DNA of 64,000 nucleotides from a virus: UHGV virus genome UHGV-0054069; one strand, written 5' to 3'. Each line of letters opens with the position of its first letter. Within the stretch, counting starts at the first letter, position 1. Position numbers and translations under genes: made by a program. Shown one piece after another: positions 5,434 through 57,182 of this stretch. The notes below the pieces were generated by a model that did not search any database, had not been told where the DNA came from, and worked only from the letters and a program-made list of their open reading frames with translations.

Positions 5434-6540
5434 ATGGCATTAACTAATTCTGAAAAAAGCAGATTTTTCCTTGCTGACCTGACTGGTGAAGTCCAGTCTA
5501 TCCCAAATACTTACGGTTATATTTCCGGTTTGGGACTGTTCCGTTCTGCTCCACAGACTCAAACTACTTTCCTGATGGACTTGACAGATTGGGATATCAG
5601 CTTGCTTGATGCTGTAGACCGCACTAGTCGTAAAGCTGAAACAAGTGCGCCTGAACGTGTTAAGCAGATTAGCTTCCCAATGATGTACTTCAAGGAAGTT
5701 GAAAGCATCACTCCTGATGAAATTCAGGGTGTACGTCAGCCAGGCACTGCAAATGAACTGACTACTGAAGCAGTTGTACGTGCTAAGAAGCTGATGAAGA
5801 TTCGTACCAAGTTCGATATTACTCGTGAGTTCTTGTTCATGCAAGCCCTGAAGGGTAAAGTAATTGACGCTAACGGTGTTCTGTACGCAGACCTGTACAA
5901 GCAGTTCGATGTAACTAAGAAGACTATCTACTTCGACCTTGACAACCCGAACTCTGATATCGATGCGCACATTGAAGACCTGCGTATGCACATGGAAGAC
6001 GAAGCTAAGACAGGTACTGTAATTAACGGTGAAGAAATTAACATCGTTGTTGACAGAACTTTCTTCAGCAAACTTACCAAGCATCCGAAGATTCGTGACG
6101 CATACCTTGCACAGCAGACTCCTCTGGCTTGGCAGCAGATTACTGGTTCTCTAAGAACTGGTGGTTCTGATGGTGTTCAGGCTCATATGAACACATTCTA
6201 CTACGGTGGTGTTAAGTTTGTCCAGTACAACGGTAAGTTCAAAGACAAGCGTAACAAGACTCACACTCTGGTGAGCATTGACGGTGTGTCTGATGTTAAT
6301 ATTGGTGTAGGTCACGCTTTCCCTAACGTTGCAATGCTGGGTGAAGCAAACAACATCTTTGAAGTGGCTTATGCGCCATGTCCTAAGATGGGTTACGCAA
6401 ATACTCTTGGTCAGGAACTGTACGTATTCGAATATGAAAAAGACCGTGACGAAGGTATTGACTTCGAAGCTCACTCTTACATGCTTCCATACTGCACACG
6501 TCCTCAGTTACTGGTTGACGTTCGTTCAGACGCTGCTTAA
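5434..6540 (+). CDS. major capsid protein (lambda gpE-like)
   Basis: 368 aa ORF after protease and decoration genes; strong codon usage (many highly expressed-type codons); lambda-like head gene order. Confidence 0.65.
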   Translation: MALTNSEKSRFFLADLTGEVQSIPNTYGYISGLGLFRSAPQTQTTFLMDLTDWDISLLDAVDRTSRKAETSAPERVKQISFPMMYFKEVESITPDEIQGVRQPGTANELTTEAVVRAKKLMKIRTKFDITREFLFMQALKGKVIDANGVLYADLYKQFDVTKKTIYFDLDNPNSDIDAHIEDLRMHMEDEAKTGTVINGEEINIVVDRTFFSKLTKHPKIRDAYLAQQTPLAWQQITGSLRTGGSDGVQAHMNTFYYGGVKFVQYNGKFKDKRNKTHTLVSIDGVSDVNIGVGHAFPNVAMLGEANNIFEVAYAPCPKMGYANTLGQELYVFEYEKDRDEGIDFEAHSYMLPYCTRPQLLVDVRSDAA

Positions 6541-19039: not shown

Positions 19040-20215
19040 ATGGCAGTCGGTGAAATTCAAATTAGTGCATTACCTCAAGCCTCATTACCTATTGATTTAA
19101 GTGATATCTTTCACCTTAAGCAAGGTATTGAGGATAGGCGATGCACACTTGAGCAATTACTTGCTCCACACGCATCTTTGAGAAATAACCCACACGGTGT
19201 TACAAAGGTTCACGTAGACCTTGGGAATGTTGTTAATGCACTCCAATTAGTGGCTGCTAATAACTTGTCAGATGTGGTCAGTGTTGAAGAGGCTAGACAG
19301 AATCTTAATATTCTATCAAGTGATGAAGTCAATACTCTTATCCAGAACCACATTAATGACAAGAATAATCCTCACAACACCAACAAGATTCAAGTAGGTT
19401 TGTCTAATATCCAAAACTGGACATATTCAAACTCTTATTCTGAAGATGCTGATAAGTATGCTACTGCAAAAGCTGTGAATGCTTTATATAGAGCTATTCA
19501 GGATAGCTATCCAATTGGTACTATTCATTTATCAGTTAACCCTGCGAACCCAACTACATATTTACTTTGTGGTGGTACTTGGGAGTTAGTTTCTAAAGGA
19601 AGGTCTCTTGTTGGTTATGACACAGATACAAGACCTGTAGAATCAGTATTTGGTTCTGCTACTGCAACACTTACACAAAATAACATTCCAAGTCACACAC
19701 ACTCTGTGTTGCTAACTGGTGGTGGGCACTCTCATAATGCAACAGTAGTAATTTCTAGCTTTGACTATGGGATTAAGAACACATCAAGTTTTGATTATGA
19801 TTCTAAGGCCACAAATGACTCTGGAAGCCACGCTCATAACGTTAATGGTTCTGTAAGCAGTGCTGGTAGCCACAGCCACAGGATTCCATTGAGGGGTTCT
19901 GACAGGGGTGGTGTGAACGCTATCACAGCATCGGCTGATGCAGGTATTGGTAATGCGTCATATACAGACTTTGATGGGGTTCATACACATACATTCAACG
20001 TTAACTCTTCAGTTGGTGGTAACCACTCTCACAGTGTGTATATTGGAGCACATGGACACAGTGTTGTAATTGGTTCGCATGGACACTCTGGTACTGTGAC
20101 AGTTCAATCTTCTGAACACACTCACTCAGGAACAACTGGTGCATTTGGTGCTGGACAAGCATTTAATATTGAGCAACCTTCTTATGTTGTATATGTTTGG
20201 AAGAGAACTGCGTAA
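19040..20215 (+). CDS. tail fiber protein (short) with His-rich C-terminal tip
   Basis: Repeated HxH motifs (HTHS, HSHN, HAHN, HSHR, HTHT, HSHS, HGHS) and C-terminus YVWKRTA shared with the downstream long fiber. Confidence 0.6.
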   Translation: MAVGEIQISALPQASLPIDLSDIFHLKQGIEDRRCTLEQLLAPHASLRNNPHGVTKVHVDLGNVVNALQLVAANNLSDVVSVEEARQNLNILSSDEVNTLIQNHINDKNNPHNTNKIQVGLSNIQNWTYSNSYSEDADKYATAKAVNALYRAIQDSYPIGTIHLSVNPANPTTYLLCGGTWELVSKGRSLVGYDTDTRPVESVFGSATATLTQNNIPSHTHSVLLTGGGHSHNATVVISSFDYGIKNTSSFDYDSKATNDSGSHAHNVNGSVSSAGSHSHRIPLRGSDRGGVNAITASADAGIGNASYTDFDGVHTHTFNVNSSVGGNHSHSVYIGAHGHSVVIGSHGHSGTVTVQSSEHTHSGTTGAFGAGQAFNIEQPSYVVYVWKRTA

Positions 20216-20260
20216 TTATTTTATAAGGGGCTACACAGCCCCTAGAAAGAGGATTTATAA

Positions 20261-22636
20261 ATGGCTGAATATAAGCTAAGTGAGCTAAACAGTATTGACA
20301 CAGTTCGCTCAGAAGATTTACTTCACCTAAGAATTATCAAAAGGTCTGATATGCTAGGTGATGAAGACCGTAAAATGACCTATGCAAATTTCCTTGCCTC
20401 TTTCAAACTAGAAAGATTCTTACAACTAACTGGTGGGGATATGACAGGGAATCTTGGCATCGTCAAATTAAGATACGGTGGAAAAGACTTATTAGACCCA
20501 ACAGGTTCTTCTGAGGTTATTCTCGGTGACACTGCCAAGACCTTTAGAATTAATGCGAGTGCTTTAAGATTAACTGTAAACGATGCCACAAGGTCTGCAA
20601 CAGTTTATCACACACTTAATAAACCATCTCCTAATGAATTAGGTATGAGAACTAATACTGAAAATGATGCAAGATATGCTATGAAGGAAACTGAAAATAC
20701 TTTCTTGGCAAGACAAATCATTAATATCAACGGTGTTGGTCTAACACTTAAAAGTATCTTACCAGATGGTGGAGCATATATTGAAGCAAGGGACTCAAAT
20801 AATGCTTTGAGATTCACAGTTGGTAACTTGACTTCTGGTACTGATGTTACATTAGTTAATAGTAAGGGTGCTACGTTGACTCTTGGCACAAACTCTGTTA
20901 GTGTTGATAAGAATTTTGAAATCAATGGACAGGTTCAGCCTAATAACTGGAATAACCTTGATGCAAGATTCTTTACACAAACTGCTGCTGACCAGAGATT
21001 TGCAAAACTTAATGCAAGTAATAACTTTGTTGGGGTTAACAACTTCAATGGTAAGACTTATGTTATTGCAGATAGTAATGCACTTAACTTAAGAGCGGTT
21101 ACAGAGAATGCTGCATTATTTATGCGTGGTTATAACAGTGCTGGGACAGGAACTTGGTATGTAGGTCAACCAGATGGTACGCAGTCTGAGATTGTTTTAG
21201 CAAACCAGATGACAAATGTTAACTTGAAAATTGCTACAGAGTTTTCATTTAACAAAGCTATCAATGTAGCTGGTCAGGTAAAACCAAGTGACTTTTCTAA
21301 CTTTGATACAAGATATGTTCCAAGCTCTTTGACGAACGTTCTTGCAAGAACTAATGCTGCAAACGTTTTTACTAGTCCACAGACTATCAATACTGACAGC
21401 GACAATCCTTTTAGACTACAGGCAACAGTACAAGACTCTGGAATCTACATGTCTGCACATAATGCTAATGGGGGCAGGAGATGGTGGTTGGGTATTGGTG
21501 ATGCTGGTCAAAACAATGTGGTACTTAACAATGATGTAACAGGAAAGGCAATCAATATTGGTACTGATTTAGATGTGAATACACATGTGAATATTGTTGG
21601 ACAAGTAAGACCAAGCGATTGGTCAAACTTTGACTCAAGATACTACACACAATCTGCTTCAAACTCAAGATATATGTTGTCTGGTGTATCTGGAACGGGA
21701 ACAGAAGTTGGTGATACAACAGGTATTGCTTGGAATTCAAAAACAGGTTTGTACAGTGTTACAAATTCAACTGGTGGGTCTACTCACTTAGTTTACCAAA
21801 TGTACCTTGGAGTTGGTGCATCTACACCGACTGCACAGTTTAAATTTAACTACAAGAATACTGGAATCTATTATAGAACAGCAAGGGATGGATTTGGTTT
21901 TGAAGAGGTTTGGGCTAAAATCTACACAGACCAAGACAAACCTACACCCTCTGAACTTGGTGCTTACACCAAGGCTGAAGTAGACCAACGTATTGCTTCC
22001 GCTGTAACTGATGCTACAGACCTTAAGAAAGTGTATCCAGTTGGTATTGTGACGTTCTTTGCTTCTAATGTCAACCCAAATACAGCTTTCCCAGGCACTA
22101 CTTGGACTTACTTAACTGAGGGTGCAAACAGAACTATTAGGATTGGTTCTGAAAATGGCTCTGATGTGAAAGGTCTTGGTGGTGCTGATACGGTTGCATT
22201 AAGTGTTGGTCACATCCCTGCACACACTCACGGCTTCTCTGGGACAACTTCTTGGTTTGACTATGGAACTAAGTACACAGATGGTCAGGGTGCTCACGAC
22301 CATGACAGAGGTAATATGGAAATCTCTGGTAACTTTGGATGGTTTAGAAGTGATAATAACTCGTTCTACGTTGCAGACGGTGCTTTTGCAATGAGTGGTA
22401 GCCAAGGTGGGCATAGCTGGACAGGTTCTAACTTCACTTATGGTGCGCCAGTTAACTTCTATGCTTCCAGAACTTGGACAGGTAGAACAAGTTGGGGAGG
22501 TGCTCATGCTCACGGTGTAGGCATTGGTGGACACAACCACACATTCAGTGGTGACACTGGTGCAACTGGTTCTGGTGCAGCATTCAGTGTTCTTAACACT
22601 TACATTAAACTAATGGCTTGGGTAAGAACTGCATAA
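20261..22636 (+). CDS. tail fiber protein (long)
   Basis: 791 aa, repetitive N/T/G-rich beta-type sequence, C-terminal HxH module (HTHG, HDHD, HAHG, HNHT) and terminal MAWVRTA. Confidence 0.65.
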   Translation: MAEYKLSELNSIDTVRSEDLLHLRIIKRSDMLGDEDRKMTYANFLASFKLERFLQLTGGDMTGNLGIVKLRYGGKDLLDPTGSSEVILGDTAKTFRINASALRLTVNDATRSATVYHTLNKPSPNELGMRTNTENDARYAMKETENTFLARQIININGVGLTLKSILPDGGAYIEARDSNNALRFTVGNLTSGTDVTLVNSKGATLTLGTNSVSVDKNFEINGQVQPNNWNNLDARFFTQTAADQRFAKLNASNNFVGVNNFNGKTYVIADSNALNLRAVTENAALFMRGYNSAGTGTWYVGQPDGTQSEIVLANQMTNVNLKIATEFSFNKAINVAGQVKPSDFSNFDTRYVPSSLTNVLARTNAANVFTSPQTINTDSDNPFRLQATVQDSGIYMSAHNANGGRRWWLGIGDAGQNNVVLNNDVTGKAINIGTDLDVNTHVNIVGQVRPSDWSNFDSRYYTQSASNSRYMLSGVSGTGTEVGDTTGIAWNSKTGLYSVTNSTGGSTHLVYQMYLGVGASTPTAQFKFNYKNTGIYYRTARDGFGFEEVWAKIYTDQDKPTPSELGAYTKAEVDQRIASAVTDATDLKKVYPVGIVTFFASNVNPNTAFPGTTWTYLTEGANRTIRIGSENGSDVKGLGGADTVALSVGHIPAHTHGFSGTTSWFDYGTKYTDGQGAHDHDRGNMEISGNFGWFRSDNNSFYVADGAFAMSGSQGGHSWTGSNFTYGAPVNFYASRTWTGRTSWGGAHAHGVGIGGHNHTFSGDTGATGSGAAFSVLNTYIKLMAWVRTA

Positions 22637-23295: not shown

Positions 23296-23324
23296 AAGGC
23301 TCCCGTAAAAAGGAGCCTTTTTTG
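23296..23324. terminator. bidirectional rho-independent terminator between convergent gene blocks
   Basis: GGCTCC-loop-GGAGCC stem followed by TTTTTTG on + strand, A-run upstream; separates + structural block from - thyA block. Confidence 0.55.
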
Positions 23325-25562: not shown

Positions 25563-26066
25563 TCATACCTCTACAAATGTTTGCTTCACGTTATCGTATG
25601 AGTAGAATTTTATACACTTTTGAGTATTCCAGTCAACCTTTTCTTTGTAAGAGATACCTTTTGAGATTCTCTTACCAAGAGTTTGATAGATGATATCTCG
25701 CAGCTTTCTGTACTCAGGTGCATCATCTAAAACTTTTGCATCTGTAGTTGCCTTGTAACCGTCTATGGAACGTTGATTCCAATCCTGCTGAGTTGGTGAC
25801 ATTGGCTTGTAAAGCTGTGGTAGATGATTGTAAAGCATGTTACCTTCTTCTAAAGCAAGCTTCAGTTGGTGAAGGTACTCATTCAAACGACCATCCTCTT
25901 CAAGCCACTCATACAGAGACTGTAAAGCCCCTAGATTGTTGTTGTAATGGGCAGCACGTTTTACAGAACCCTTGTCAGTACGATAAGGTGACTTTGGAAG
26001 ACTCAGTATCTGACCTTTCAAAACGTTGAATCCAAAGACCAAATCTATTTTCATGGGAAGAGACAT
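25563..26066 (-). CDS. hypothetical protein
   Basis: 167 aa ORF in - strand operon. Confidence 0.45.
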   Translation of the reverse strand: MSLPMKIDLVFGFNVLKGQILSLPKSPYRTDKGSVKRAAHYNNNLGALQSLYEWLEEDGRLNEYLHQLKLALEEGNMLYNHLPQLYKPMSPTQQDWNQRSIDGYKATTDAKVLDDAPEYRKLRDIIYQTLGKRISKGISYKEKVDWNTQKCIKFYSYDNVKQTFVEV

Positions 26067-26416
26067 TTGATATCCTCATTTTTAAAAGTGAATGTTGTGT
26101 AGTTAGTACCATCAACATTTAACCAGATAGCTTTCACAGAAACACCATCAAGGTTGTTGTACAGTTCTTTAACAAACGTATTTCGAACATCATGAGCACA
26201 GGTTGTCTCAAGTTTAATGTTAGAAATGGCTGAACCAATAGTCATGTAGCCAGCTACACGACTCTTCTCAGTATGCTTGATTCTTCCTTCTTGATACATC
26301 TGCTTCAGGACTCCCAAGAGTTCTTCACCAAATGACTTCTCAGCACTCGTCGGTTTCCCGTAGAAACCAAGTGCAAAGTTGTCGTTGAAAATTGCATTCT
26401 TACGTTTCATAATCAA
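26051..26416 (-). CDS. hypothetical protein
   Basis: 121 aa ORF in - strand operon. Confidence 0.45.
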   Translation of the reverse strand: MIMKRKNAIFNDNFALGFYGKPTSAEKSFGEELLGVLKQMYQEGRIKHTEKSRVAGYMTIGSAISNIKLETTCAHDVRNTFVKELYNNLDGVSVKAIWLNVDGTNYTTFTFKNEDIKCLFP

Positions 26417-26712: not shown

Positions 26713-26908
26713 CCTTCTTCCTCCGTTTACGCGAAGTGTCTATTAAGGAATCTATACTGGTTGCTCTTACATTCTCACGAGTCCCGTTGACGAAGTGGTC
26801 TAGAGCCTCTACAACTGTATTAAAATCCTTAGCCCAAACTCTGTAAATAACTACTCCATCGTCGTCAACAACTTCACCATAGTCGATTCTACAGATGTTC
26901 TTTTTCAT
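26705..26908 (-). CDS. hypothetical protein
   Basis: 67 aa ORF overlapping both neighbours. Confidence 0.4.
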   Translation of the reverse strand: MKKNICRIDYGEVVDDDGVVIYRVWAKDFNTVVEALDHFVNGTRENVRATSIDSLIDTSRKRRKKDE

Positions 26909-27285
26909 TGTGGCAGACCCATGCAGTGACGGTTGATGATAAAGTACTCAAACCCATCTAAAACAGACTGTGTAACACGTTCTTCTACAGCTTTAGTTTC
27001 AGAAATCTGTTCAGAACTTAGCACATCAATATTCTCAGAAACCATCATATCAGCCACATCGTTGTAGTAACCACCCATAGTGTGGTAGATGAGGTCAGTT
27101 GTACGGTCTGTCATTTCCTGAAAAGTTTCTTGAGTGATTGGTTTAGTTAACTCTCCAGACTTAGAAACAATCTTTTGAGAAAGCTCACAAGACTCCAGTT
27201 TAACTTTACCGTAGTCCACATTTGGCATTACTGCATAAGCATTGAAGCTTAGTGCTGCAAAGAGACATAGTGCAATCTTTTTCAT
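26905..27285 (-). CDS. secreted/periplasmic protein (signal peptide)
   Basis: Likely start MKKIALCLFAALSFNAYA (signal peptide, AYA cleavage-type site) with GGAGGT RBS; track start 27360 is probably too far upstream. Confidence 0.5.
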   Translation of the reverse strand: MKKIALCLFAALSFNAYAVMPNVDYGKVKLESCELSQKIVSKSGELTKPITQETFQEMTDRTTDLIYHTMGGYYNDVADMMVSENIDVLSSEQISETKAVEERVTQSVLDGFEYFIINRHCMGLPQ

Positions 27286-27337
27286 AATTACCTCCAAACT
27301 AACTAGTGGGTTCCTATATAATATCTTGTATATTGCT

Positions 27338-27365
27338 AGTATACCCACTAAGAATCTCATGTCAA
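27338..27365 (-). promoter_or_regulatory. sigma70-type promoter (minus strand) with overlapping 8-bp inverted repeat (27304-27311 / 27341-27348)
   Basis: Minus-strand TTGACA-N16-TATACT; inverted repeat TAGTGGGT/ACCCACTA spans the -10 and +1 region. Confidence 0.45.
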
Positions 27366-27442
27366 CAACTTTCTACATGTATAACCAAGAGAAAAATAAG
27401 ATACCGATAATCACTACTGCAATTGCAATCCCCATAGTGTAA

Positions 27443-28543
27443 TCACTCATAATCTCTAATAACAAGCCCAACAGGGAACTGTAAAGACCCCTTACGAGTC
27501 ATCTTCTGGAACTGAACCGTCAGAGGTTTACCGATAAACTCTTCAGGATGTTCAGCAAGATACTTCTTCTTCTCATGGGTAGTTTTCCATGAAACATCTA
27601 CAAAGATGTTAGGAAGAGTCTCTACAACGAACTTACCATGCCCCCGCTTATCAGTCTTCACACCAGTAACTTTAAACTCCTCTGTGTGCATCTTCTTGTG
27701 TTTAATCAGGAAGTATGAACGGTGACCACACTCATAGAAGGATTCTGGGGAGATTGAACGGTACATTGCCCCTTCAAACTTCAGCTTAACCCAATTATCA
27801 TGTGCTTTGTCGAACTCTTCCCAAGAATTAACACGGATAGTCTGTACAGGAACAACCCTGCAAGCTTCACCAAGTTCAACAAGAGGTGAATTGTCAATAA
27901 CTTCACGACGCTCAGGCCAAGACTTGGTATTATCACAGATATCATACCAGTAGAACTTAAGAAGGTGACGGTCTGGATTGTCAGTATTCTTAATCATGGA
28001 TACAATATCCTCTAAGTCCCAACCATGAGCGTAAATCTCACCATCAAAATCTTCAACTTGTGGGTGACACTTCAGCATTAGTAACAAATCTGGGATTAGC
28101 TCTGCTGGTACATTATAAACAGTGTTTTCACGAGAATAAGCCGTGAAGCTTACTGTATCAACATCTCTTGAAATCCTGCAACGAACACCATCAAGTTTAG
28201 GTTGAGCGTCAGCAGGGAAATTCAGGTATTTTGCGTGACTAATCTTTACAGCATCGTGAGCAAGCTGTACACCAACCTTTTCAACGTTCTCTGCTTCAGA
28301 CTTTGTGTAAGCATAACCTTTACGGTCTACTTGCTTCTTGTACTTTGCAGAAACTTCAAAGAGAGCTTGCTGTTCAGCGTTACGCTCATTCTTTTTACCG
28401 ATGTTCTTCGGTTCTGCTGTGTACTCTTCAAACATCATTTTGCCGTTCTCTTTACCGTAAGTGGTAACCACCTTGTCACCTACAGCAACACACGACCAAA
28501 CGTTAAAGGAACCATCTTTGTTTTGTTTGTACAGAATTGTCAT
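27443..28543 (-). CDS. ATP-dependent DNA ligase
   Basis: Adenylation motif KLDG (PKLDGVRC), 366 aa, T7-ligase-like size. Confidence 0.75.
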   Translation of the reverse strand: MTILYKQNKDGSFNVWSCVAVGDKVVTTYGKENGKMMFEEYTAEPKNIGKKNERNAEQQALFEVSAKYKKQVDRKGYAYTKSEAENVEKVGVQLAHDAVKISHAKYLNFPADAQPKLDGVRCRISRDVDTVSFTAYSRENTVYNVPAELIPDLLLMLKCHPQVEDFDGEIYAHGWDLEDIVSMIKNTDNPDRHLLKFYWYDICDNTKSWPERREVIDNSPLVELGEACRVVPVQTIRVNSWEEFDKAHDNWVKLKFEGAMYRSISPESFYECGHRSYFLIKHKKMHTEEFKVTGVKTDKRGHGKFVVETLPNIFVDVSWKTTHEKKKYLAEHPEEFIGKPLTVQFQKMTRKGSLQFPVGLVIRDYE

Positions 28544-29078
28544 TTGTCTTTCTCTCCCACACCTTTTTTAATTTTTCAACAGAAACAATGTTTCCAGATT
28601 GAGTCATCGCATTTCCAGACAAAGAGAAGAAACTCTCTGGGAATGGTAATTCTAACTTAGAATAAAAATCATAGTAAGAACCACCTGACTCTCTGTATGC
28701 AATCTTCAGACTACCATTATGTCTATACGAAAATAAGACAAGAGAACCGTCTGGGTATTTTAAGCATTTTCCAAATTGTTTCTTGTACAAGTAGTCAGCA
28801 AAATCAATGTATAAATCCTTTAAATACTCAGAGACATTCTCAACTTGTCTTACACCGAGATTTTTGCAAATATGTTCGTATTTTAGATAATCAAACCTAT
28901 ATGGTGTTGCTCCAGTTTCATGTAAGAATTTTAGTACAGCGAGTTTTACAGGTTGATACATTAATGGGTTTGAGTATTGCCTTTTCTTCTCTTGATACCA
29001 AGGTATTGAGTAGCTTTGATAGGCCATTCTCAGGTTACTGTAAGACTCTCTAAATCTATCCTCTTCACTCATTTTCAT
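28503..29078 (-). CDS. hypothetical protein
   Basis: 191 aa, Tyr-rich; RBS aaaggg upstream. Confidence 0.45.
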   Translation of the reverse strand: MKMSEEDRFRESYSNLRMAYQSYSIPWYQEKKRQYSNPLMYQPVKLAVLKFLHETGATPYRFDYLKYEHICKNLGVRQVENVSEYLKDLYIDFADYLYKKQFGKCLKYPDGSLVLFSYRHNGSLKIAYRESGGSYYDFYSKLELPFPESFFSLSGNAMTQSGNIVSVEKLKKVWERKTNDNSVQTKQRWFL

Positions 29079-29277
29079 TACCCTTTTAAGTAAACGCGTA
29101 CAACTTGTTTGTCGTTGTCAGTCTCAAACTTATGTGTGACTCTTTCGACTTCATAGCACCACCCATCAACCTCAACAGTCTCCTCCCTTTCGTGGGATAA
29201 CTGGATTACGTTGTGCTACGGTCTCATTTTGAAGGATGATTATGTGGTTGTGAATGAAATTTACCAGTACTCTTATT

Positions 29278-29523
29278 TCAATACCCTTCATCAATAACTG
29301 TTACACTTTGAGTGCTACTTCTACCAACTTTAGAGGTAGTTGTAGTTTGTGAATTTGGACAACGAACAACTACCAAGTCTCTATTAATCATGGAACCATT
29401 CAGACGATAGATTGAGCAATCCTTCATCTCTGGAGGAAGTGTGTAACTCCCTTCTTTGTTATCGTAGCTTGGGTTACAGCCAGTTATAAAGAGCACTCCA
29501 AGTGCAATGATTGTTTTCCACAT
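29278..29523 (-). CDS. lipoprotein (signal peptide + lipobox ITGC)
   Basis: MWKTIIALGVLFITGC: n-region, hydrophobic core, lipobox with Cys; Asn at +2; short mature domain with 2 further Cys. Confidence 0.55.
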   Translation of the reverse strand: MWKTIIALGVLFITGCNPSYDNKEGSYTLPPEMKDCSIYRLNGSMINRDLVVVRCPNSQTTTTSKVGRSSTQSVTVIDEGY

Positions 29524-29741
29524 AGTTGTTTTCCTTTTTCACAGTTTTCTTCGTAACCTTCTTGGACGGTCTTGTAAAGTTCATTGAAAGTTTCTTCTTT
29601 CACTGGCTTTACAGATTTTGTTTTACATAAGTCCAAGTACCATTGATAATCTAATCCACGACACCACGCTTCAGACACAAAAGAAATCTGAGGGTTTATG
29701 TGTCGGATTATTGATAAACCAGCCTCTTCTTTACTGCTCAT
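29484..29741 (-). CDS. hypothetical protein
   Basis: Start chosen at MSSKEE with GGAG RBS; Cys-rich. Confidence 0.4.
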   Translation of the reverse strand: MSSKEEAGLSIIRHINPQISFVSEAWCRGLDYQWYLDLCKTKSVKPVKEETFNELYKTVQEGYEENCEKGKQLCGKQSLHLECSL

Positions 29742-29946
29742 TTTGATTTCTCCAAAACTCAATGTCAATAAGTTCCTGTGCAATGCTTCTCATGTTACCT
29801 TTCAAGAAAACCTTTTCAGAGTTAGGTAGGCTTGCATTATCAATGAGTCTATTCATTCTGTCAAAAAGAGTTTTCTTCCGATTCTTGATAGTCTCTTTTG
29901 AAGCCCCTTGCATCATGGCGAGATGGGTTCTTCCACGGTGACTCAT
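29731..29946 (-). CDS. hypothetical protein
   Basis: 71 aa basic ORF. Confidence 0.4.
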   Translation of the reverse strand: MSHRGRTHLAMMQGASKETIKNRKKTLFDRMNRLIDNASLPNSEKVFLKGNMRSIAQELIDIEFWRNQNEQ

Positions 29947-30204: not shown

Positions 30205-32904
30205 TTAGTGGACTTCAAGCCACGATTTACCAACCTTACCAGTACCCGTTACCAAAGTATCCTTCTTCAGTCCCAAGTTTTTAGAAGCTTGACCATAATA
30301 CCAGTCAGTTACTGCCTTAACTTCTGCTGTCATGCTTTCTGGACATTCCCAGCTTGTTTCGTCGTGGTAAGCACAAAGTAAACGAGCACCGATAGCTGGC
30401 TTACGACCATTTAGTTTCATCAAACCTTCATCAATCATACGACGACAAGCAAGGTTTATTGCTTCATTCTGAACTTGTGCTTCTGAACCCATCAACAGAT
30501 AGTTCAAGAGTTTGTGTGGAGATTTACACCACAACCACGCCCCAGCAACCTGAACAAATCCACCTTTAGCAATTGCAGCAGTTTTACCAAAGACCTCTTC
30601 AAGAGCTTTCTTAGTTGCTTTAAAGTCAGCTTCTAAGTTATCAATCAGTTTCTTAATCTTCGGCAAACGAACAAAGTAAGTCTGCTTAGTCAATGCACCT
30701 TCTTGAGTAGTTGAAGCTTTGATGGTCTTAGCAAACTTCTCATCACCCGCACCGAACAGCAGTGCATAGATACCGTTTTTAGCTTTTTTACGACCCTTAC
30801 TAATCTCGTGAAGAAGATTCTCATCCTGAGTCATACGACAAGTCAAGATATCCTGCTCATCATTCAAGCTGAAGTAAATACTGTTCAGTGTGTGAGCATC
30901 AGTGCCTGAATAGACTACGTACAAGTCGTTTTCAGAGTCATAACGCAGATACTTGTCAACTTCTGGGTTAAGGTATTCGTCGAAGTGTTTGCAGTAATAA
31001 CGACCATCTTCTTGACGAATAAACTCAATTTCTTCCTTACCTTCTGTTACTGCTTTGGTGAACTCTTTATCACCCATAAAGTTACACAGTAACACAAGCT
31101 GTGCAGAGTTCATATCAACGGATACTACGTTGGTTCCTTCTTCACAAATCCAGACTGCCCTCATTGGTTCCCCGTAAACAGCAGCCCCAGAAGGTACGTT
31201 CACAATACCATACTGTGTCATACGACCAGTTGAAGTACCAAACACCATTGCACCAGCACTCAAGCGACCATCTGGACGAATCTGGTTTAACCAACCTTTC
31301 TCGTCATCTTTTGAGTTCTCAATAGTTCTACGTCGGTGCATCAAAGTATAGTACTTCGCAATCTTTTGTCCAAGTTCACCTTCAATGGTGTCATAAGAAG
31401 ATTCAGTAAGTTTAGGTGAAGTACGAATCAAGCAAGGCTCAAGCAAATCTGTGTACTTCCTAACAGACCAGTTATGCTCAATGTAATGAACCCCTTCATG
31501 CTCAATGTAGTTCAATCCACAACGTTCAACCATCTCATCCCACTTAGGATGTTTACGAATCATCTTCTTATTATCTTTGAAGCGACATACCTTGATTGGA
31601 CGGTTATCAGAATCCTTTTTGTAGTTCCAATCATCAGGAATCCAGCCAACAGATTTCAAGTATTCCTTCACCACTGCAACCTGAGTCATACGTGAAACTT
31701 CAAACTCAATTGGTGTATAAGGTGCATCAACAAGACCTGTGTAACGGCTTGACTCCATTTCAAAGTGATTTACTACGTGGTTATTGTAGTACTTCACAGT
31801 TTTAACTGTCTTAACTGGCTTCCAATCCTTACACTTCTTGCCAGCCTTAGCATTCAACTCATTGCAGATTGCACGAGCATCTTTCATTGCTACAAAACCT
31901 TCCCTGTACTCTTCACCAGTGACAGTGTTAGTTGGAGTGTAGCAATTACGTTTCTCAATGTTGAAAATCTTTGTAGTTGGTTTCCCATATGGCTTGATAG
32001 GGTACGTCTTCAGTTCCCCTTCACGCATCTGCTCACGATACTTTGTCTTTGGATACTTTGTGATACGTTTCAAACCATCTACATGACCAAATGTTTCAAC
32101 ATACTCATTCCATGCCTTGGCAAACTCTTCACCAGTTACTTTACCTTTCGTCTTAATAGTCGGAGGTAAGAACGGTTCAACTTCAGAGGCTAACTCAGAA
32201 GTCATCTTATCCAGTTCTTCTACACAGGACTTCATAAGGTCAATGTTAGCTTTCCAACCATTAATAGCTTGTTGACTCATCCAGAAAGAAGTCTCTTTAG
32301 CTCGCATGTAGGTTTCGTAAGTATCTACACCACACTTCTTAAGCTTAAGGTATTCATTATCCATAGCACGTTTTGCTTTGGCGTTGATTCGAATATCCTC
32401 AACAACACGGTTAAGAATATCAGCGTTCCACACACCCCACTCTTCAATCTCTGGTTTACGAACACCAACACGAGCACCCCATGCAGCCAAGCCATGAGCA
32501 CCTTTGTAACCTTTTGGTGTAGGTCTATCCATCCACTGCACACGAGATTGTATAAGTGAATCCTGAAAGAAGTCACTCCAAGGTTTACACTTAGGATTAT
32601 CAAAGTTCCACAGGTCAGGTGCAATATGGTTGAACACCCACCAGTCATAACCAAGACCATTGTGGATACAAAGGCGTTTGGCTTTCAATGCAAACTCCAC
32701 ACCTTCACGCAAACCACCTTTGATGTATTTTGTATACTTGTGACCAAGGATAGGCTCATCAGTGAAAACCCACACAGCAGGTTCATCACTATCATCTTTG
32801 TAATCTGCGAATGCCATAACGTGAGCTTTTGTAAACTCAAGCAGCAACCCGTCAGTTTCTGTATCACCAACCAAATGTAAGTTTTCAAAATCTACATTGT
32901 TCAT
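30205..32904 (-). CDS. DNA polymerase, family A, with 3'-5' exonuclease domain
   Basis: Exo I motif DTETDGL near N-terminus; pol motif B-like K..IYALLFGAG and motif C-like YHDE near C-terminus; 899 aa. Confidence 0.85.
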   Translation of the reverse strand: MNNVDFENLHLVGDTETDGLLLEFTKAHVMAFADYKDDSDEPAVWVFTDEPILGHKYTKYIKGGLREGVEFALKAKRLCIHNGLGYDWWVFNHIAPDLWNFDNPKCKPWSDFFQDSLIQSRVQWMDRPTPKGYKGAHGLAAWGARVGVRKPEIEEWGVWNADILNRVVEDIRINAKAKRAMDNEYLKLKKCGVDTYETYMRAKETSFWMSQQAINGWKANIDLMKSCVEELDKMTSELASEVEPFLPPTIKTKGKVTGEEFAKAWNEYVETFGHVDGLKRITKYPKTKYREQMREGELKTYPIKPYGKPTTKIFNIEKRNCYTPTNTVTGEEYREGFVAMKDARAICNELNAKAGKKCKDWKPVKTVKTVKYYNNHVVNHFEMESSRYTGLVDAPYTPIEFEVSRMTQVAVVKEYLKSVGWIPDDWNYKKDSDNRPIKVCRFKDNKKMIRKHPKWDEMVERCGLNYIEHEGVHYIEHNWSVRKYTDLLEPCLIRTSPKLTESSYDTIEGELGQKIAKYYTLMHRRRTIENSKDDEKGWLNQIRPDGRLSAGAMVFGTSTGRMTQYGIVNVPSGAAVYGEPMRAVWICEEGTNVVSVDMNSAQLVLLCNFMGDKEFTKAVTEGKEEIEFIRQEDGRYYCKHFDEYLNPEVDKYLRYDSENDLYVVYSGTDAHTLNSIYFSLNDEQDILTCRMTQDENLLHEISKGRKKAKNGIYALLFGAGDEKFAKTIKASTTQEGALTKQTYFVRLPKIKKLIDNLEADFKATKKALEEVFGKTAAIAKGGFVQVAGAWLWCKSPHKLLNYLLMGSEAQVQNEAINLACRRMIDEGLMKLNGRKPAIGARLLCAYHDETSWECPESMTAEVKAVTDWYYGQASKNLGLKKDTLVTGTGKVGKSWLEVH

Positions 32905-39806: not shown

Positions 39807-40296
39807 AGGTTTCGGTAATTGCCCTGTTTATGGTCATTGGGTATCTTTATGCGGGGAAGTTGACCCAGCTAAACTGTTCGGGTTTGTCTACCTAGTCTAT
39901 TGTAAGAAAACTGGACAGTATTACATTGGTAAAAAGCAGTTCAATAGTATCACTAAGAAGAAGGTTGCTGGAAAGACCAGACGTAAGGTTGTCACCAAAG
40001 AGAGTGACTGGATGGTTTACCAGACTTCTTCTGAGTACATTAAGAAAGATATTGAAGCTTTTGGTATGAAAGAGTTTGACTTCTACATTGTGCAAACCTA
40101 TTATACACGAGGTGGGTTAGTCTATGGAGAAGCAAATCTCCAACATAAGTTCGATGTTATGACAAAAAGGATTGACTCGAAACTCAGACTCTTCTACAAT
40201 GCCAATATTGCAGCTATCAAGTTCCTTACAAAAGAAACTTATGAAGAAGCTGAGAAACGTATTAACAAAATCATGAAACTTAATGAGAGAGAATAA
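39796..40296 (+). CDS. GIY-YIG nuclease family protein (homing endonuclease-like)
   Basis: VYLVY ... YYIGKK motif pair with correct spacing; overlaps exonuclease stop. Confidence 0.5.
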   Translation: MKIKGFGNCPVYGHWVSLCGEVDPAKLFGFVYLVYCKKTGQYYIGKKQFNSITKKKVAGKTRRKVVTKESDWMVYQTSSEYIKKDIEAFGMKEFDFYIVQTYYTRGGLVYGEANLQHKFDVMTKRIDSKLRLFYNANIAAIKFLTKETYEEAEKRINKIMKLNERE

Positions 40297-40510
40297 GATT
40301 ATGTTTAACAAACTTAAGAATGACCACGTAGCTAAAATTGACAGCCATATTGCAGCACTGAAAGATGCAATCGTCAAAGCTAAAGCAGCTACGGAGTCCG
40401 AAATGGAGGCTCTTGAGTCCCAGATTCAGCAACTGATTAACAAACGTGTTGAACTGAAAGGCCGACTGGATTATATTGAGTCTCAGCAGAAACTATTTCA
40501 GGAGGTTTAA
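40283..40510 (+). CDS. hypothetical coiled-coil protein
   Basis: 75 aa ORF. Confidence 0.4.
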   Translation: MRENKIMFNKLKNDHVAKIDSHIAALKDAIVKAKAATESEMEALESQIQQLINKRVELKGRLDYIESQQKLFQEV

Positions 40511-41265
40511 TGTTTAATTCCAGAGAATCCGTTTTAACTTGGAATCAGCGTTGTGGTAATACCCCGTTGACTCCTTATACACATGATTACTGGTCTTCAA
40601 TGCGTAGTCAAGCACTTTGCATGTTAGAAGAAGCCAAAGAGCTTTTGAAAGCGGTTGATGAAAAAGACCCTATTGAGGCTCTTGATGCTCAGGCAGATTT
40701 ACAGTATGTTCTTGATGGACTGATTTACCTTTCACAGCATGACCATGACGGAGCTATGAAAGCAGTCTGTGAGAATAACAACCTGAAGTATACTGATAAC
40801 TACGAAGAAGCTTTGAAGCGTCTTGCAGATATCGAGAAACGTACTGGTGATGAATGTCGTGTACGTGCTTCAATGATTGACGGAAAAGAATGGTACGCCA
40901 TTGTCCGTGAATCTGATAAGAAGATTATGAAGCAGTCTAATCTTCCTAAAGTACAGCTTGCAGAGTTCATCGCGGAACTTGAAAGCAAAGAATTGTTCGT
41001 GGTAACATCTGACACATGCGTTATCTGTAAAGGTCTTGTAGGAAGCTTAAAAGACCTTGGATTGAGTGACTTCACTGAAGTTCGACCAATCAGTTCAAAA
41101 GCAGACAAAGACTTCTGCAAAGAAAACGGATTATGGCTTGCAGATATTGTTTACTATGACGGTGAGAAGTTCCATGTGACCTCATACCCGAAACTGAACT
41201 ATGATGCAAATAACCTGAAGAATTGGTTAAAAGGGGTTGGTTATAATGGATTCACAGAACATTAA
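40510..41265 (+). CDS. hypothetical protein; N-terminal MazG-like all-alpha NTP pyrophosphohydrolase-like region (tentative)
   Basis: N-terminal helical segment with EE..E..D / EALDAQADLQYVLDGL pattern; C-terminal half unknown with CVIC motif. Confidence 0.35.
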   Translation: MFNSRESVLTWNQRCGNTPLTPYTHDYWSSMRSQALCMLEEAKELLKAVDEKDPIEALDAQADLQYVLDGLIYLSQHDHDGAMKAVCENNNLKYTDNYEEALKRLADIEKRTGDECRVRASMIDGKEWYAIVRESDKKIMKQSNLPKVQLAEFIAELESKELFVVTSDTCVICKGLVGSLKDLGLSDFTEVRPISSKADKDFCKENGLWLADIVYYDGEKFHVTSYPKLNYDANNLKNWLKGVGYNGFTEH

Positions 41266-41569
41266 TATTGAAGAGGTGGCTCCAAAGAGCCATTTCTCAA
41301 ACTACAATCTCTCTATGACAGTGTTTATGAAGGATTCACTGTTAGCAAAATATGGAGAGACACCAGAAACTTTACTGGATAATGAGCAAGTTTTAAAGGC
41401 TGTACTTTTTAAGTTTGGGTTGAACATCGACAAACCATATTCTTATGAGATTTGTCAGCACCGTAATACATTCGGTAAAGTTGTGACTGCTCCACTGTTC
41501 ATGGGTGTTGAACGCACTGATGATGGTTGGATTTACCTAAAACGAAACTTGGATAAATACCATGTCTAA
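41237..41569 (+). CDS. hypothetical protein
   Basis: 110 aa ORF. Confidence 0.4.
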   Translation: MVIMDSQNINIEEVAPKSHFSNYNLSMTVFMKDSLLAKYGETPETLLDNEQVLKAVLFKFGLNIDKPYSYEICQHRNTFGKVVTAPLFMGVERTDDGWIYLKRNLDKYHV

Positions 41570-41897
41570 AGCAAAGAAGCTTACAATTGAAGATGTAAAA
41601 GCTGGCGTTGAACTTGGAGTTGATAAGTTTGACAAACCTTTACGATTCGGTGACATAGTGATGTACACAGAAGATTGTAAAGGGCGAAGTGATATAAAGT
41701 TTGGTCGTGTTACTGGTAAGAAGCGTGGTAACTTTGTTATTTCACGAATGGAAGACAACCTGCACGAAAACCTTGAAAAACTGTTCGATGAAACTAAACG
41801 TTGGTGGTACTGCAACGCAATGTCGAAAGCTTCACTGACTAAGGTTTCTAACAAGTTCTATGAACTTTGGCAAAATAAACAAATATTTAGCATTTAA
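41562..41897 (+). CDS. hypothetical protein
   Basis: 111 aa ORF followed by terminator. Confidence 0.4.
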   Translation: MSKAKKLTIEDVKAGVELGVDKFDKPLRFGDIVMYTEDCKGRSDIKFGRVTGKKRGNFVISRMEDNLHENLEKLFDETKRWWYCNAMSKASLTKVSNKFYELWQNKQIFSI

Positions 41898-44182: not shown

Positions 44183-44237
44183 TTTTAATAACTATGAGGG
44201 TCATAAAAGACCCTCTAAAAATAACTTTGGAGAGTAT

Positions 44238-44513
44238 ATGCTAGAACTTATTAAATCTGCAAGGCTGAGAAGTAAAGACAGCTCATTGTATTTGTATTAT
44301 GCCCCAAGGAAGTCACTGTACTATATTGCAGAGTTAGACTTGAAAGTGAAGATGCCAGATGGTTCTTGGAAAGAGCATGTACGCTACACTGACTGCTTCA
44401 ATCCTAAACAAACATATGCAAGGCCACTTGACATGTTTAAAACAGAACGTTGGGTTGTAATGACAACACCTGAAGCCAGAGAATTTCTTAATACAGGAAA
44501 ATTACCAGAATGA
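44238..44513 (+). CDS. hypothetical protein
   Basis: Start at MLELIK with GGAGAG RBS; lies between nrdA and nrdB. Confidence 0.4.
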   Translation: MLELIKSARLRSKDSSLYLYYAPRKSLYYIAELDLKVKMPDGSWKEHVRYTDCFNPKQTYARPLDMFKTERWVVMTTPEAREFLNTGKLPE

Positions 44514-45583
44514 TTAATCCACATCCAATATTCTTAGGTGAAGAACGTAAGACTTTTGATTCACTTAATAAACACTATCCAAAAATCTTTGAACTGTATA
44601 AGCAGCAGAAAGCTCAAGACTGGTCTGAAGAGGAATTTCCATTTGAGCAATCACGCTTAGACTTTGAGAGTGTCCCTCAGTCAATGTCTGGGGTTATGCT
44701 TGAAATTCTTAAATGGCAATGGGAAGCAGATACCCAAGTTGCCAAGAGTTTAGCATTTGCTTTTGCACCGTTCATCTCTGATGACATTTATGCAACTGCA
44801 ATCATGAAGCAATCTGAAATTGAGAACCTTCATGCTTTAACTTATTCTGAGATTGTTCGTCAGTGTATCAAGAATCCTGAAACAATCCTTGATGAGATTA
44901 ACAATAACGTTGCTGTTCAAGACCGTCTGAAGACAGTGAACAGAACTTTACAAGAACTACTTGACGAAGGTATCAACTATCGTTTAAGTTACGTTCGTCA
45001 GGAACTAACAGATAAAGACCCTTTGCATTTCCATAAGGCAATCTTAAAGGCTCTCTTTGCAGTGACTGCTTTGGAAGGTATTTCCTTCATGGCATCTTTT
45101 GCATGTACTTTTGCACTGGATGCACAAGATAAGTTCCAAGGTATTGCACAAGCTGTTCAAAAGATTATGCTTGATGAAATTATTCACACCAAAATTGATA
45201 TTGAAGCATTGAAAGAAACTCTGAAGGATGAAGACTGGCAGGAAGCATTCAGACAGATTCTACCAGAGATTAAAGTTATTCTGGATGAGGTTGTTGAGTG
45301 TGAAGAGAAGTGGTCTTACTATATCTTCTCTGAAGGTCGAGCAGTTGTAGGTTTAAACACAAAACTTCTTCACGAATGGGTTTACTATAACGCTGCACCG
45401 CTGTATGATATGTTTGGAATCCCAAGAGATTTCGTAGCTCCTAAAGAAGCTCCACTTGCTTACATGATTAAGAAGATGGAAATCGACAAAGAGCAGAACG
45501 CAAACCAAGAACAGCAAAACGGTGCATACCTTCTGAACACGGTTGTAGATGATTTAAACTCAGGATTTTTAGAGGTTCCTTAA
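44510..45583 (+). CDS. nrdB: ribonucleotide reductase class Ia small subunit
   Basis: Di-iron ligand motif DEIIHT, 357 aa, downstream of nrdA. Confidence 0.8.
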   Translation: MINPHPIFLGEERKTFDSLNKHYPKIFELYKQQKAQDWSEEEFPFEQSRLDFESVPQSMSGVMLEILKWQWEADTQVAKSLAFAFAPFISDDIYATAIMKQSEIENLHALTYSEIVRQCIKNPETILDEINNNVAVQDRLKTVNRTLQELLDEGINYRLSYVRQELTDKDPLHFHKAILKALFAVTALEGISFMASFACTFALDAQDKFQGIAQAVQKIMLDEIIHTKIDIEALKETLKDEDWQEAFRQILPEIKVILDEVVECEEKWSYYIFSEGRAVVGLNTKLLHEWVYYNAAPLYDMFGIPRDFVAPKEAPLAYMIKKMEIDKEQNANQEQQNGAYLLNTVVDDLNSGFLEVP

Positions 45584-49200: not shown

Positions 49201-49685
49201 TGAATTACATGGAAATACGAAAATTTGATACAGCGAACGGTGAAGGTGCTCGTGTCAGTCTTTTTGTAGCTGGCTGTCGTCACCATTGTGAAGGTTGCTT
49301 TAACAGGGAATCTTGGAAGTTTAATGCAGGAAAAGAGTTTACTTACGCAAACCTTTATGGCATTATGCAGCTAATGAATGATAATGCTATTAGTGGGCTG
49401 TCAATACTTGGTGGAGAACCTCTGGATGATAGAAACATTCAAGAAGTCACCAACATATGCAAACGTATTAAAACTGTTTACCCAGAAAAGTCTATATGGC
49501 TTTGGACAGGATTTCAGCTTCATGAAAAAATTAATAAAGAAGTGATGAAATATGTTGACGTGGTAATTGATGGTAAGTATGATGCTTCTAAACCAACGAA
49601 CAAGCCGTATCGTGGTTCAGACAACCAAAACTTGTGGAGAAAAGAATATGGCTGGCAAGGCGACTGTCAATGGAGAGCAGAGTAG
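49200..49685 (+). CDS. nrdG: anaerobic ribonucleotide reductase activating protein (radical SAM)
   Basis: CxxxCxxC radical-SAM motif (CRHHCEGC); 161 aa. Confidence 0.75.
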   Translation: MNYMEIRKFDTANGEGARVSLFVAGCRHHCEGCFNRESWKFNAGKEFTYANLYGIMQLMNDNAISGLSILGGEPLDDRNIQEVTNICKRIKTVYPEKSIWLWTGFQLHEKINKEVMKYVDVVIDGKYDASKPTNKPYRGSDNQNLWRKEYGWQGDCQWRAE

Positions 49686-49926
49686 CTACTCCGGTAAGTG
49701 GACTTATAACATTAACTCACTCGATGAGTGGATTGTAAAGACCAATGAGAAGTTTGGGGAAAGAGGGTTAGTAGCTCTAGCAGAGATTGTTAAATGTGTT
49801 ACTTTCCACGTTGATTCAGAAAGCACATTTAATGATGGACAGATGCTTTTTACTGATGTAAGATACGGGCTTGTTCGAGTTGGTATCGAAAAAGAAGAAC
49901 TAGACCAGTTCTGTATTAAACTTTAA
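49648..49926 (+). CDS. hypothetical protein
   Basis: Start at MAGKAT overlapping nrdG 3' end; track start 49567 lies deep inside nrdG. Confidence 0.35.
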   Translation: MAGKATVNGEQSSYSGKWTYNINSLDEWIVKTNEKFGERGLVALAEIVKCVTFHVDSESTFNDGQMLFTDVRYGLVRVGIEKEELDQFCIKL

Positions 49927-50199
49927 ATGAGAGAGATTAAAATGGGAATTTTTGGTGATATGAAAGCTAGTTTCTTAGCGGCACTTGCAAAAGCAGCAGC
50001 AATTGTCTCTATGACAGGTAAGCAGGTTGGTGTAGATGCTTCAGCAGTTGCACAGGTTCTTGCAAGCCAGATTGAACAGCAACCTTACATTCACGTTGGA
50101 CGTGGTAAAGGTGGTAAGAAACAAGCTCACCGTCAGTCTGGTGCAGCAGCAATTAAACGTGCAGCTAAAAAAGCCCGTAACCGTAAACGTAGCAAATAA
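49927..50199 (+). CDS. hypothetical basic protein
   Basis: 90 aa, Lys/Arg-rich C-terminus. Confidence 0.4.
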   Translation: MREIKMGIFGDMKASFLAALAKAAAIVSMTGKQVGVDASAVAQVLASQIEQQPYIHVGRGKGGKKQAHRQSGAAAIKRAAKKARNRKRSK

Positions 50200-57112: not shown

Positions 57113-57118
57113 AAGAGT

Positions 57119-57147: not shown

Positions 57148-57182
57148 ACGAAACTGTTAATTAACTAAAGAGAGATATTAAG

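Follow-up and report, generated by a model that had tools for sequence, protein, structure and literature searches.

A DUF4884 lipoprotein gene in the replication region of a Felix O1-like phage: family, gene context and possible early action at the cell envelope

The lipoprotein gene and its family

The present work concerns a 64,000-nucleotide stretch of the virus genome UHGV-0054069 (the window, whose positions are used throughout) and, within it, an 81-codon open reading frame (ORF) at 29278-29523 on the minus strand, which encodes a predicted lipoprotein. The window is that of a Felix O1-like myovirus (Ounavirinae); the 6-kb stretch round the gene is 98% identical to the Shigella phages ESh21 and ESh22 (Mooglevirus), and the same stretch matched 294 phage records. 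An earlier interpretation, made from the DNA letters and called here the sequence-only reading, had proposed at this place an early-expressed lipoprotein of outer-membrane type that might block the phage's own receptor. It is now firmly supported that this is a real, constrained, stand-alone and accessory gene of a large phage family, predicted to code for a lipid-anchored, disulfide-containing periplasmic beta domain, whereas any statement on its target and phenotype is speculative. The ORF runs from an ATG at 29523-29521 to a TGA at 29280-29278, and the following features were assigned to it.

29278..29523, minus strand: lipoprotein precursor gene, DUF4884/phrog_902, 81 codons plus TGA (from the ORF list, the sequence and the profile)
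29479..29523, minus strand: signal peptide, residues 1-15 (MWKTIIALGVLFITG), with the predicted signal peptidase II cut before Cys16
29476-29487, minus strand: lipobox I-T-G-C, residues 13-16, read from the sequence
29476..29478, minus strand: codon of Cys16, predicted diacylglyceryl/acyl acceptor and mature residue 1, followed by Asn (+2) and Pro (+3)
29281..29475, minus strand: mature periplasmic part, a polar linker of ~10 residues and then a small all-beta domain with LPPEM.DC and VVRCPNSQT
29416..29418, minus strand: codon of Cys36, first half of the predicted intradomain disulfide, invariant in 124 sequences
29359..29361, minus strand: codon of Cys55 (in VVRCPNS), second half of the predicted disulfide, invariant in 124 sequences
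29532..29536, minus strand: AAGGA, Shine-Dalgarno-like, 8 nt 5' of the lipoprotein ATG, read from the minus strand

The complete sequence of the protein is MWKTIIALGVLFITGCNPSYDNKEGSYTLPPEMKDCSIYRLNGSMINRDLVVVRCPNSQTTTTSKVGRSSTQSVTVIDEGY; in the translation, the N-terminus MWKTIIALGVLFITGC is followed by NPSY…. When precursors were recognised by an N-terminal positive residue, a hydrophobic core and a lipobox [LVI][ASTVI][GAS]C within the first ~25 residues, the window protein appeared as a canonical lipoprotein precursor, with Lys3, the hydrophobic core IIALGVLF, the cleavage motif ITG/C, Asn at position +2 and Pro at +3. Both the ORF and the lipoprotein signal of the sequence-only reading are thus present. 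In E. coli, Asn at +2 directs a lipoprotein to the outer membrane whereas Asp at +2 leads to inner-membrane retention (the '+2 rule'). By this rule, the window protein is predicted to be sorted to the outer membrane, in agreement with the outer-membrane type proposed earlier, and the same prediction holds for the Ounavirinae alleles, which carry Asn or Lys at +2. Judging from its sequence, the protein would be lipidated, would reside in this membrane and would contain a disulfide.

The full protein matched phrog_902 ('unknown function') with E=2.5e-15, and 6.2e-10 was obtained once the signal peptide had been removed; our own family profile matched the protein with E=5.9e-29. Eleven close homologues bear the precomputed tag PF16225, labelled DUF4884; a Pfam-A scan returned PF16225 for 0 of 124 members, the model being apparently absent from the copy searched. 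Pfam and NCBIfam gave no informative match for the window lipoprotein, and LPAM_1, the Pfam model of the lipid attachment site, was matched by 24 of the 124 members. With DUF4884/phrog_902 the window protein has in common the length, the lipobox, the cysteine pair and the motifs LP.E..DC and VVRCPNS.T. On sequence grounds it is classed as a new member of this catalogued, uncharacterised family, being 95-96% identical to database entries.

A profile built from Ounavirinae sequences collected 665 clusters (50% identity) at E≤0.001 among 1.84 billion representatives, and the clusters are 61-137 residues long among the matches listed. In an alignment of 124 members, only the lipid acceptor Cys16, Cys36 and Cys55 are invariant columns, and Pro30, Pro56, Thr60, Gly67 and Lys68 are nearly so. 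The lipobox occurs in essentially all members, and the second and third cysteines are separated by a median of 19 residues. The family consensus consists of the lipobox cysteine, ~10 polar residues, Y.LP.EL.DCK.Y.L, a loop of 7-10 residues, VVRCPNS.T.T.Y..GK and a final strand. Since the cysteine pair is invariant in an exported protein, we infer that it forms an intradomain disulfide.

AlphaFold models present a five-stranded antiparallel beta domain, the mean predicted local distance difference test score (pLDDT) being 70 for the full-length protein and 64 when only the mature part was modelled. Phage lipoproteins modelled in BFVD, from the Yersinia jumbo phage fHe-Yen9-03 and the T4-like Aeromonas phages Aeh1 and phiAS5, superpose on it with template modelling scores of 0.77-0.79. 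These independent models, all of uncharacterised proteins, support the predicted five-stranded fold. Sequence and profile searches of the PDB with the window protein and the family profile gave no match, and fold searches with the predicted structure returned non-specific matches only.

The +2 residue varies within the family (S22, D21, N20, E19, T17, A13, G12 and others; n=153). In enterobacterial Vequintavirinae and jumbo-phage homologues it is Asp, as in CR3 (…LAGC-DAS), fEgEco12 (…LTAC-DAS) and a 354-kb phage (…LSGC-DGK), and these proteins are predicted to stay on the inner membrane. From there, a tether of ~10 residues would not reach the periplasmic face of an outer-membrane barrel, which argues against an outer-membrane receptor as the common target of the family. 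The target is more likely to be located in the periplasm or to cross it, and might also differ from one lineage to another.

Distribution, alleles and gene context

Relatives were detected by tblastn in 589 phage records. They belong to Felixounavirus, Mooglevirus, Vequintavirinae (Cronobacter phage CR3) and jumbo phages (PBECO4-like, Erwinia, Yersinia), and also to Acinetobacter phages including the T4-like Acj61, to T4-like Aeromonas phages and to ~290 Vibrio phages of ~114 kb with a T5-like replication module. With the peptide probe VVRCPNS[STQ]T, 185,579 species genomes of bacteria and archaea yielded one relative (Hylemonella gracilis), and IMG/VR yielded 35 loci; the probe is narrow, and both counts are therefore lower bounds. 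DUF4884 is almost entirely phage-borne; clearly it belongs to phages, and for the most part to virulent ones. In all loci examined, the gene lies in an early or replication region, where the genes around it are short, run in the same direction and have no assigned function. Clustering of the neighbours within ±2.5 kb in 22 diverse loci revealed no gene travelling with the lipoprotein, from which we conclude that the lipoprotein acts alone.

In the window, the gene belongs to a minus-strand string that comprises the DNA polymerase gene (30205-32904), small ORFs, the lipoprotein gene, the ATP-dependent DNA ligase gene (27443-28543) and the genes for DHFR and thymidylate synthase (ThyA). The structural genes, including two tail-fibre genes (19040-20215 and 20261-22636), lie on the plus strand, upstream of the replication string. 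The sequence-only reading had placed the lipoprotein among early or replication genes, and its location between polymerase and ligase agrees with this. Judging from position only, its expression would be early (or middle).

The lipoprotein gene is neither a core replication gene nor a lysis gene. Phage SUSP1 (Suspvirus, Ounavirinae), which has the same polymerase-to-ligase synteny, has no family member anywhere in its genome, which indicates that the gene is accessory. A CRISPRi-ART knock-down screen has been published for SUSP1 (PMC11879866); as this phage does not carry the gene, the screen is silent on the lipoprotein. The HIDEN-SEQ preprint contains no mention of Felixounavirus or Bas63. 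The gene was present in 20 of 20 Ounavirinae loci, a circular figure, as these loci were fetched by the family probe; a rough non-circular estimate, from counts of organism names only, is ~196 records with the lipoprotein against ~251 with an Ounavirinae tail fibre.

Twenty-four Ounavirinae sequences represent 22 distinct alleles, which fall into classes. The class of mainstream Felixounavirus is well conserved; the window and S.Kent sequences form an outlier class, set apart mostly by the loop that follows Cys36 and by the C-terminal hairpin. The window allele is 95-96% identical to those of Salmonella phage S.Kent 1-2-1 and of one 'Citrobacter freundii' record, and ~59% identical to the mainstream Felixounavirus allele. 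Across 20 loci, the ligase and the polymerase have median protein identities to the window of 90% and 95%, and the lipoprotein one of 59%. Selection within classes is strongly purifying: the median ratio of nonsynonymous to synonymous substitution rates (dN/dS) was 0.068 for the lipoprotein in 141 pairs and 0.10 for the ligase, and the comparison of the window with S.Kent gave dN 0.013, dS 0.308 and dN/dS 0.04. Between classes, synonymous sites are saturated. Positive, diversifying selection at the locus was considered and rejected in view of the low dN/dS; the divergence is that of old allele classes exchanged by recombination.

Comparison with ESh21, in which 98.6% of positions aligned with 96.8% identity, showed the divergence to be greatest in the island 28401-29800; the divergence islands of this pair contain no structural gene. 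The tail-fibre DNA is 98.1% identical to that of the window in ESh22, 97.7% in ESh21 and 96.9% in ESh19 (98.2% for the long fibre protein of the latter), and the lipoproteins of ESh21 and ESh19 are only 59% identical to the window protein. Conversely, the S.Kent 1-2-1 lipoprotein is 96.3% identical, in a block (29250-29741) of 91% nucleotide identity between flanks of 78-88%, and the 40 best of 51 tail-fibre DNA matches do not include S.Kent 1-2-1. Between Moogle and the window, the fibre is 46% and the lipoprotein 68% identical. In the window/ESh21 pair, the lipoprotein allele thus varies independently of the fibres and of every other virion component.

Possible functions of the lipoprotein

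Tentatively, and giving it somewhat less than an even chance, we favour a membrane-tethered periplasmic effector that acts early on the envelope, either in receptor-independent exclusion or in counter-defence. The protein would be exported by the Sec pathway, lipid-modified and cleaved before Cys16, so that its acylated N-terminus would tether it to a periplasm-facing membrane; for the window allele, the anchor would lie in the inner leaflet of the outer membrane, since residue +2 is Asn. The polar linker of ~10 residues would hold a disulfide-stabilised all-beta domain of ~55 residues in the periplasm. Synthesised from the replication-gene string, presumably in early or middle infection, it would bind a component of the envelope or of periplasmic transit independently of the phage's own receptor specificity, and the envelope of the infected cell would be altered during the latent period. 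Such independence from receptor specificity and from the virion is supported by the facts that the gene is independent of the tail fibres and that near-identical genomes differ most at this cassette. The most likely pay-off would be post-adsorption exclusion of later phages, in the manner of T4 Spackle or of entry-exclusion lipoproteins rather than of Llp; a closely related option, suggested by the accessory islands in which relatives lie in other phages, would be protection against an envelope-linked host response. Small periplasmic lipoproteins with a single disulfide are a proven format of phage exclusion (Llp, Rtp45; PMC9586334, PMC12685063), and superinfection exclusion in the broad sense is possible.

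The T4 protein Spackle (Sp, gp61.3) resembles the window protein as an early periplasmic accessory protein of a virulent myovirus, and it blocks superinfection after adsorption while the receptor is left untouched. Spackle carries an ordinary signal peptide, is soluble and helical and inhibits the gp5 tail lysozyme, whereas the window protein is predicted to be lipid-anchored and all-beta, and no virion gene co-varies with it. The PHROG 'spackle periplasmic' gave no match for the window protein at E≤1. The plasmid entry-exclusion lipoproteins TrbK and EexN are likewise small lipoproteins that block incoming DNA at the envelope; the NCBIfam models of entry-exclusion lipoproteins gave sub-threshold N-terminal matches, of signal-peptide level, for two relatives and none for the window protein.

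Several observations weigh against the favoured reading. Neither homology nor fold links the family to an exclusion protein that has been characterised; confidence in the structure models is only moderate (pLDDT 64-70), and the conserved motifs may be purely structural. As the homologues of enterobacterial Vequintavirinae and jumbo phages have Asp at +2, the family has no conserved anchoring membrane; this variation fits a soluble or trans-periplasmic target and is also compatible with several unrelated functions. Matches to sigma-70-like promoters are not enriched over shuffled sequences (30 versus 26±5.6), so that promoter support is weak. In the literature, we found no paper on the function of DUF4884 and no experimental datum for any member, the name occurring only in genome tables.

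A wider proposal, which we regard as possible though rather unlikely, is that DUF4884 constitutes a new class of receptor-independent envelope effectors, tethered by lipid to the outer or the inner membrane according to lineage and carried by many unrelated virulent phages (Felix O1-like, rV5-like, jumbo, T4-like and T5-like Vibrio phages). Such effectors would stop the DNA entry or periplasmic transit of competitors, or disable an envelope-linked host response, via a conserved component such as LptDE, BAM, Tol-Pal or a peptidoglycan enzyme.

The sequence-only reading had proposed, by analogy with Llp and Cor, that the lipoprotein blocks the phage's own receptor, and this part is not supported. 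In this model, which Rtp45 also exemplifies, the protein would bind the periplasmic face of its own outer-membrane receptor and block it allosterically, preventing both the adsorption of sister phages and the loss of progeny on debris. The general format of Llp and Rtp45 is indeed shared by the window protein, which has ~6-7 kDa, one conserved cysteine pair, Asn at +2 and a gene outside the late genes. T5 Llp (phrog_1119) is similar in particular: it is a small lipoprotein with a mature part of ~6-7 kDa, a lipobox and conserved cysteines, it faces the periplasm, and the virulent phage that encodes it produces it before lysis. However, Llp targets FhuA and is encoded beside the receptor-binding gene oad/pb5, whereas the window gene lies in the replication cluster of an LPS (lipopolysaccharide)-dependent phage, on the opposite strand to the tail-fibre genes (19040-22636, plus strand) and ~6.6 kb away from them. 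BLASTP against T5 Llp gave no alignment, hhalign of the family profile with Llp gave a probability of 0.7%, the full T5 genome contained no DUF4884 member, and the window protein had no match to phrog_1119 in PHROGs. T5 had been examined for co-existence of Llp with the family, in which connection PMC12210894 mentions a T1-like case. The annotation 'lytic conversion lipoprotein', carried by one jumbo-phage relative and the only 'Llp' label in the family, is a signal-peptide artefact: its phrog_1119 match (E≈1e-3) covered residues 1-49 only and was lost without the signal peptide, whereas mature Llp retains its match at 1.4e-11.

The behaviour of the alleles points in the same direction. Llp trees broadly track receptor-binding protein and receptor groups (PMC12980165), whereas in Ounavirinae the lipoprotein allele and the tail-fibre allele are dissociated in both directions. 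The cassette is the most divergent island of near-identical genomes, but this resembles specificity switching only superficially: the allele classes diverged long ago, with saturated dS and purifying selection within classes, which is not the pattern of rapid specificity evolution. Furthermore, Felix O1-like phages are reported to target LPS and not a protein receptor (PMC8594841), and a lipoprotein facing the periplasm would not mask LPS directly. The family also occurs in phages with very different hosts and receptor types, and its Asp(+2) homologues are predicted on the inner membrane. Masking of the own receptor in the manner of Llp, Cor or Rtp45 is therefore disfavoured, and we judge it very improbable.

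Rtp45 of phage Rtp is a superinfection-exclusion lipoprotein that binds LptDE (PMC12685063). It is periplasmic, has ~6 kDa and one disulfide and acts on an LPS-related machine instead of a TonB-dependent transporter; for an LPS-dependent phage, LptDE would thus be a conceivable target, by analogy and as pure conjecture. Rtp45, however, comes from small siphophages whose receptor-binding protein binds LptD, and no such dependence is known for the window phage. The PDB sequence and profile searches gave no match to Rtp45, the presence of its entry 9RPS in the searched copy being unconfirmed.

Counter-defence or host takeover by the neutralisation of an envelope-associated host function (a stress sensor, a periplasmic protease or hydrolase, or a membrane-linked abortive infection system) was taken as a reading of its own and seems unlikely. 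It would agree with an accessory gene that is patchy even within Ounavirinae, virtually confined to virulent phages and independent of virion genes, and with relatives that directly follow Gad1 or share a block with an Acb2/Tad1-hairpin protein, MazG and Fic. This guilt by association, however, comes from two loci only, and the window's own neighbours gave no defence-related matches. We also know of no anti-defence protein that is a periplasmic lipoprotein, which counts against this reading.

These two loci are on metagenomic phage contigs. On one (L051, 429-1692), the DUF4884 gene lies directly 3' of a Gad1 (anti-Gabija) gene; on the other (L050, 6261-10261), it lies a few kb from an Acb2/Tad1-hairpin gene, MazG and Fic. 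The context suggests accessory or counter-defence islands.

An effect on the timing of lysis or on envelope integrity, by a periplasmic modulator of the RI or antiholin type (delaying or coordinating lysis, or keeping the envelope stable until the end of assembly), is very improbable. T4 RI is small, early, periplasm-exposed and encoded away from the lysis genes, which speaks for such a role, as do the rIIA/rIIB homologues at 54743-58304 of the window (by alignment to the ESh21 annotation) and the enrichment of the family in large virulent phages. Against it, the lipoprotein matched no lysis-related PHROG and is unlinked to holin, endolysin or spanin genes in any locus examined, and SUSP1 has a full lysis set without the lipoprotein. 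Nothing that we found indicates a role in lysis timing.

A small lipoprotein with periplasmic cysteines may also recall an o-spanin of the Rz1 type, or the ORF might have arisen by chance; the probability of either is negligible. A lipobox regular-expression scan of the six frames of the 64-kb window returned only two candidates, 29278-29523 and 60397-60666, and the second belongs to the genuine overlapped Rz/Rz1 pair (60156-60666), ~31 kb away from the lipoprotein gene. The four ORFs flanking the lipoprotein gene have no membrane segment (maximal 19-residue hydropathy ≤0.78, versus 1.72 in the true Rz), and proline makes up only 4 of the 66 mature residues. The earlier statements that the gene is far from the lysis genes and has no adjacent i-spanin partner were thus correct. 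The possibility of a chance ORF was rejected on the phrog_902 match, the 665 clusters, the invariant lipobox cysteine and the dN/dS of ~0.07, in keeping with the conservation throughout the family.

The spanin pair itself deserves a remark. On the plus strand, 60156-60503 encodes a 115-residue Rz-like i-spanin (phrog_1152, E=4.8e-36), overlapped by the 89-residue lipoprotein of 60397-60666. The latter is phrog_4180, of 'unknown function' in PHROGs, yet it is evidently the o-spanin; the equivalent pair of phage SUSP1 is annotated as an Rz-like spanin and a putative o-spanin.

To our knowledge, all characterised exclusion lipoproteins of virulent coliphages (Llp, Cor, Rtp45) have their gene next to that for receptor binding and act by locking the protein receptor of the phage itself. 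DUF4884 is much more widespread, is unlinked to receptor-binding genes and is present in LPS-using phages; if it does serve exclusion, a different principle would be involved. The identity of the target would reveal which conserved envelope step is manipulated early by large virulent phages, and cross-exclusion among Felix O1-like, rV5-like and jumbo phages would matter for the design of phage cocktails. Even without an exclusion phenotype, the family would offer a clean entry to the periplasmic 'dark matter' of phage proteins. An early phage lipoprotein as such will not surprise the specialist; it is the breadth of the family, its independence from receptor genes and its LPS-dependent carriers that make it a reasonable experimental target.

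Neighbouring genes and minor observations

Two further features lie upstream of the lipoprotein gene.

29836..29864, minus strand: sigma-70-like promoter candidate, TTGACA-17-GATAAT (11/12), the region's best match, upstream of the two-gene stretch 29741→29278
29484..29741, minus strand: small cytoplasmic ORF of 85 residues from ATG 29741, phrog_9065 (E=8e-37), overlapping the lipoprotein start by 40 nt

The phrog_9065 ORF has no transmembrane segment and travels together with the lipoprotein allele in the comparison with S.Kent 1-2-1. It was present in 4 of the 20 Ounavirinae loci; being absent from most relatives, it is probably not a functional partner of the lipoprotein.

On the other side, 29079-29300 (minus strand), directly 3' of the lipoprotein gene, carries a copy, disrupted by a frameshift, of a gene found intact in ESh21 (85 residues) and SUSP1 (agp042). 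Its halves match in frames -2 and -3 with a break near 29184, and a pseudogene, a sequencing error or a programmed frameshift are all possible. Between the lipoprotein cassette and the ligase gene, 28503-29078 (minus strand) encodes a 191-residue protein without a Pfam or PHROG match, in a 41-nt overlap with the ligase start. This ORF is missing in the 98%-identical ESh21, where only ~90 bp are found, and a weak homologue occurs in only 1-2 of 20 related loci, so that it looks like an inserted accessory or mobile gene.

Further along the string, 26905-27360 (minus strand) encodes a phrog_4332 protein, for which an internal start gives a classical Sec signal peptide (MKKIALCLFAALSFNAYA/V…), and 27373-27471 (minus strand) encodes a 32-residue peptide with a single transmembrane segment. 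As both products appear to be directed to the envelope, the operon would export several small proteins. A perfect bidirectional intrinsic terminator at 23296-23319 (AAGGCTCCC…GGGAGCCTT, T-runs on both strands) closes the string and lies between the convergent structural and nucleotide-metabolism/replication strings.

Besides the lipoprotein cassette, the window and ESh21 differ in islands of 72-79% identity or with an indel at 25601-26200, 40201-41200, 41401-41800 and 44201-44600, and by indels near 49601-50000 and 61401-61600; these other islands are all in small non-structural ORFs.

Some records containing family members call for a comment. In Escherichia phage warpig (2501-2743 of locus L007), the lipoprotein gene is unannotated and an overlapping 303-bp coding sequence is annotated instead; as several other Felixounavirus records also leave the gene unannotated, the family is under-counted in annotations. 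The records MG065668.1 and MG065664.1 ('Campylobacter phage A126/A132'; 43 and 70 kb) contain a Felixounavirus-type lipoprotein (60.5% identity) and a tail fibre, and seem to be mis-assigned or contaminating sequence of a Felix O1-like phage, not Campylobacter phages. A single chromosomal copy was found in bacteria, in Hylemonella gracilis ATCC 19624 (5956-6234 of locus L012); it encodes 92 residues with Asp at +2, and its neighbours, a regulator of XRE type, a further lipoprotein and large ATPase-like ORFs, may form a defence or mobile island.

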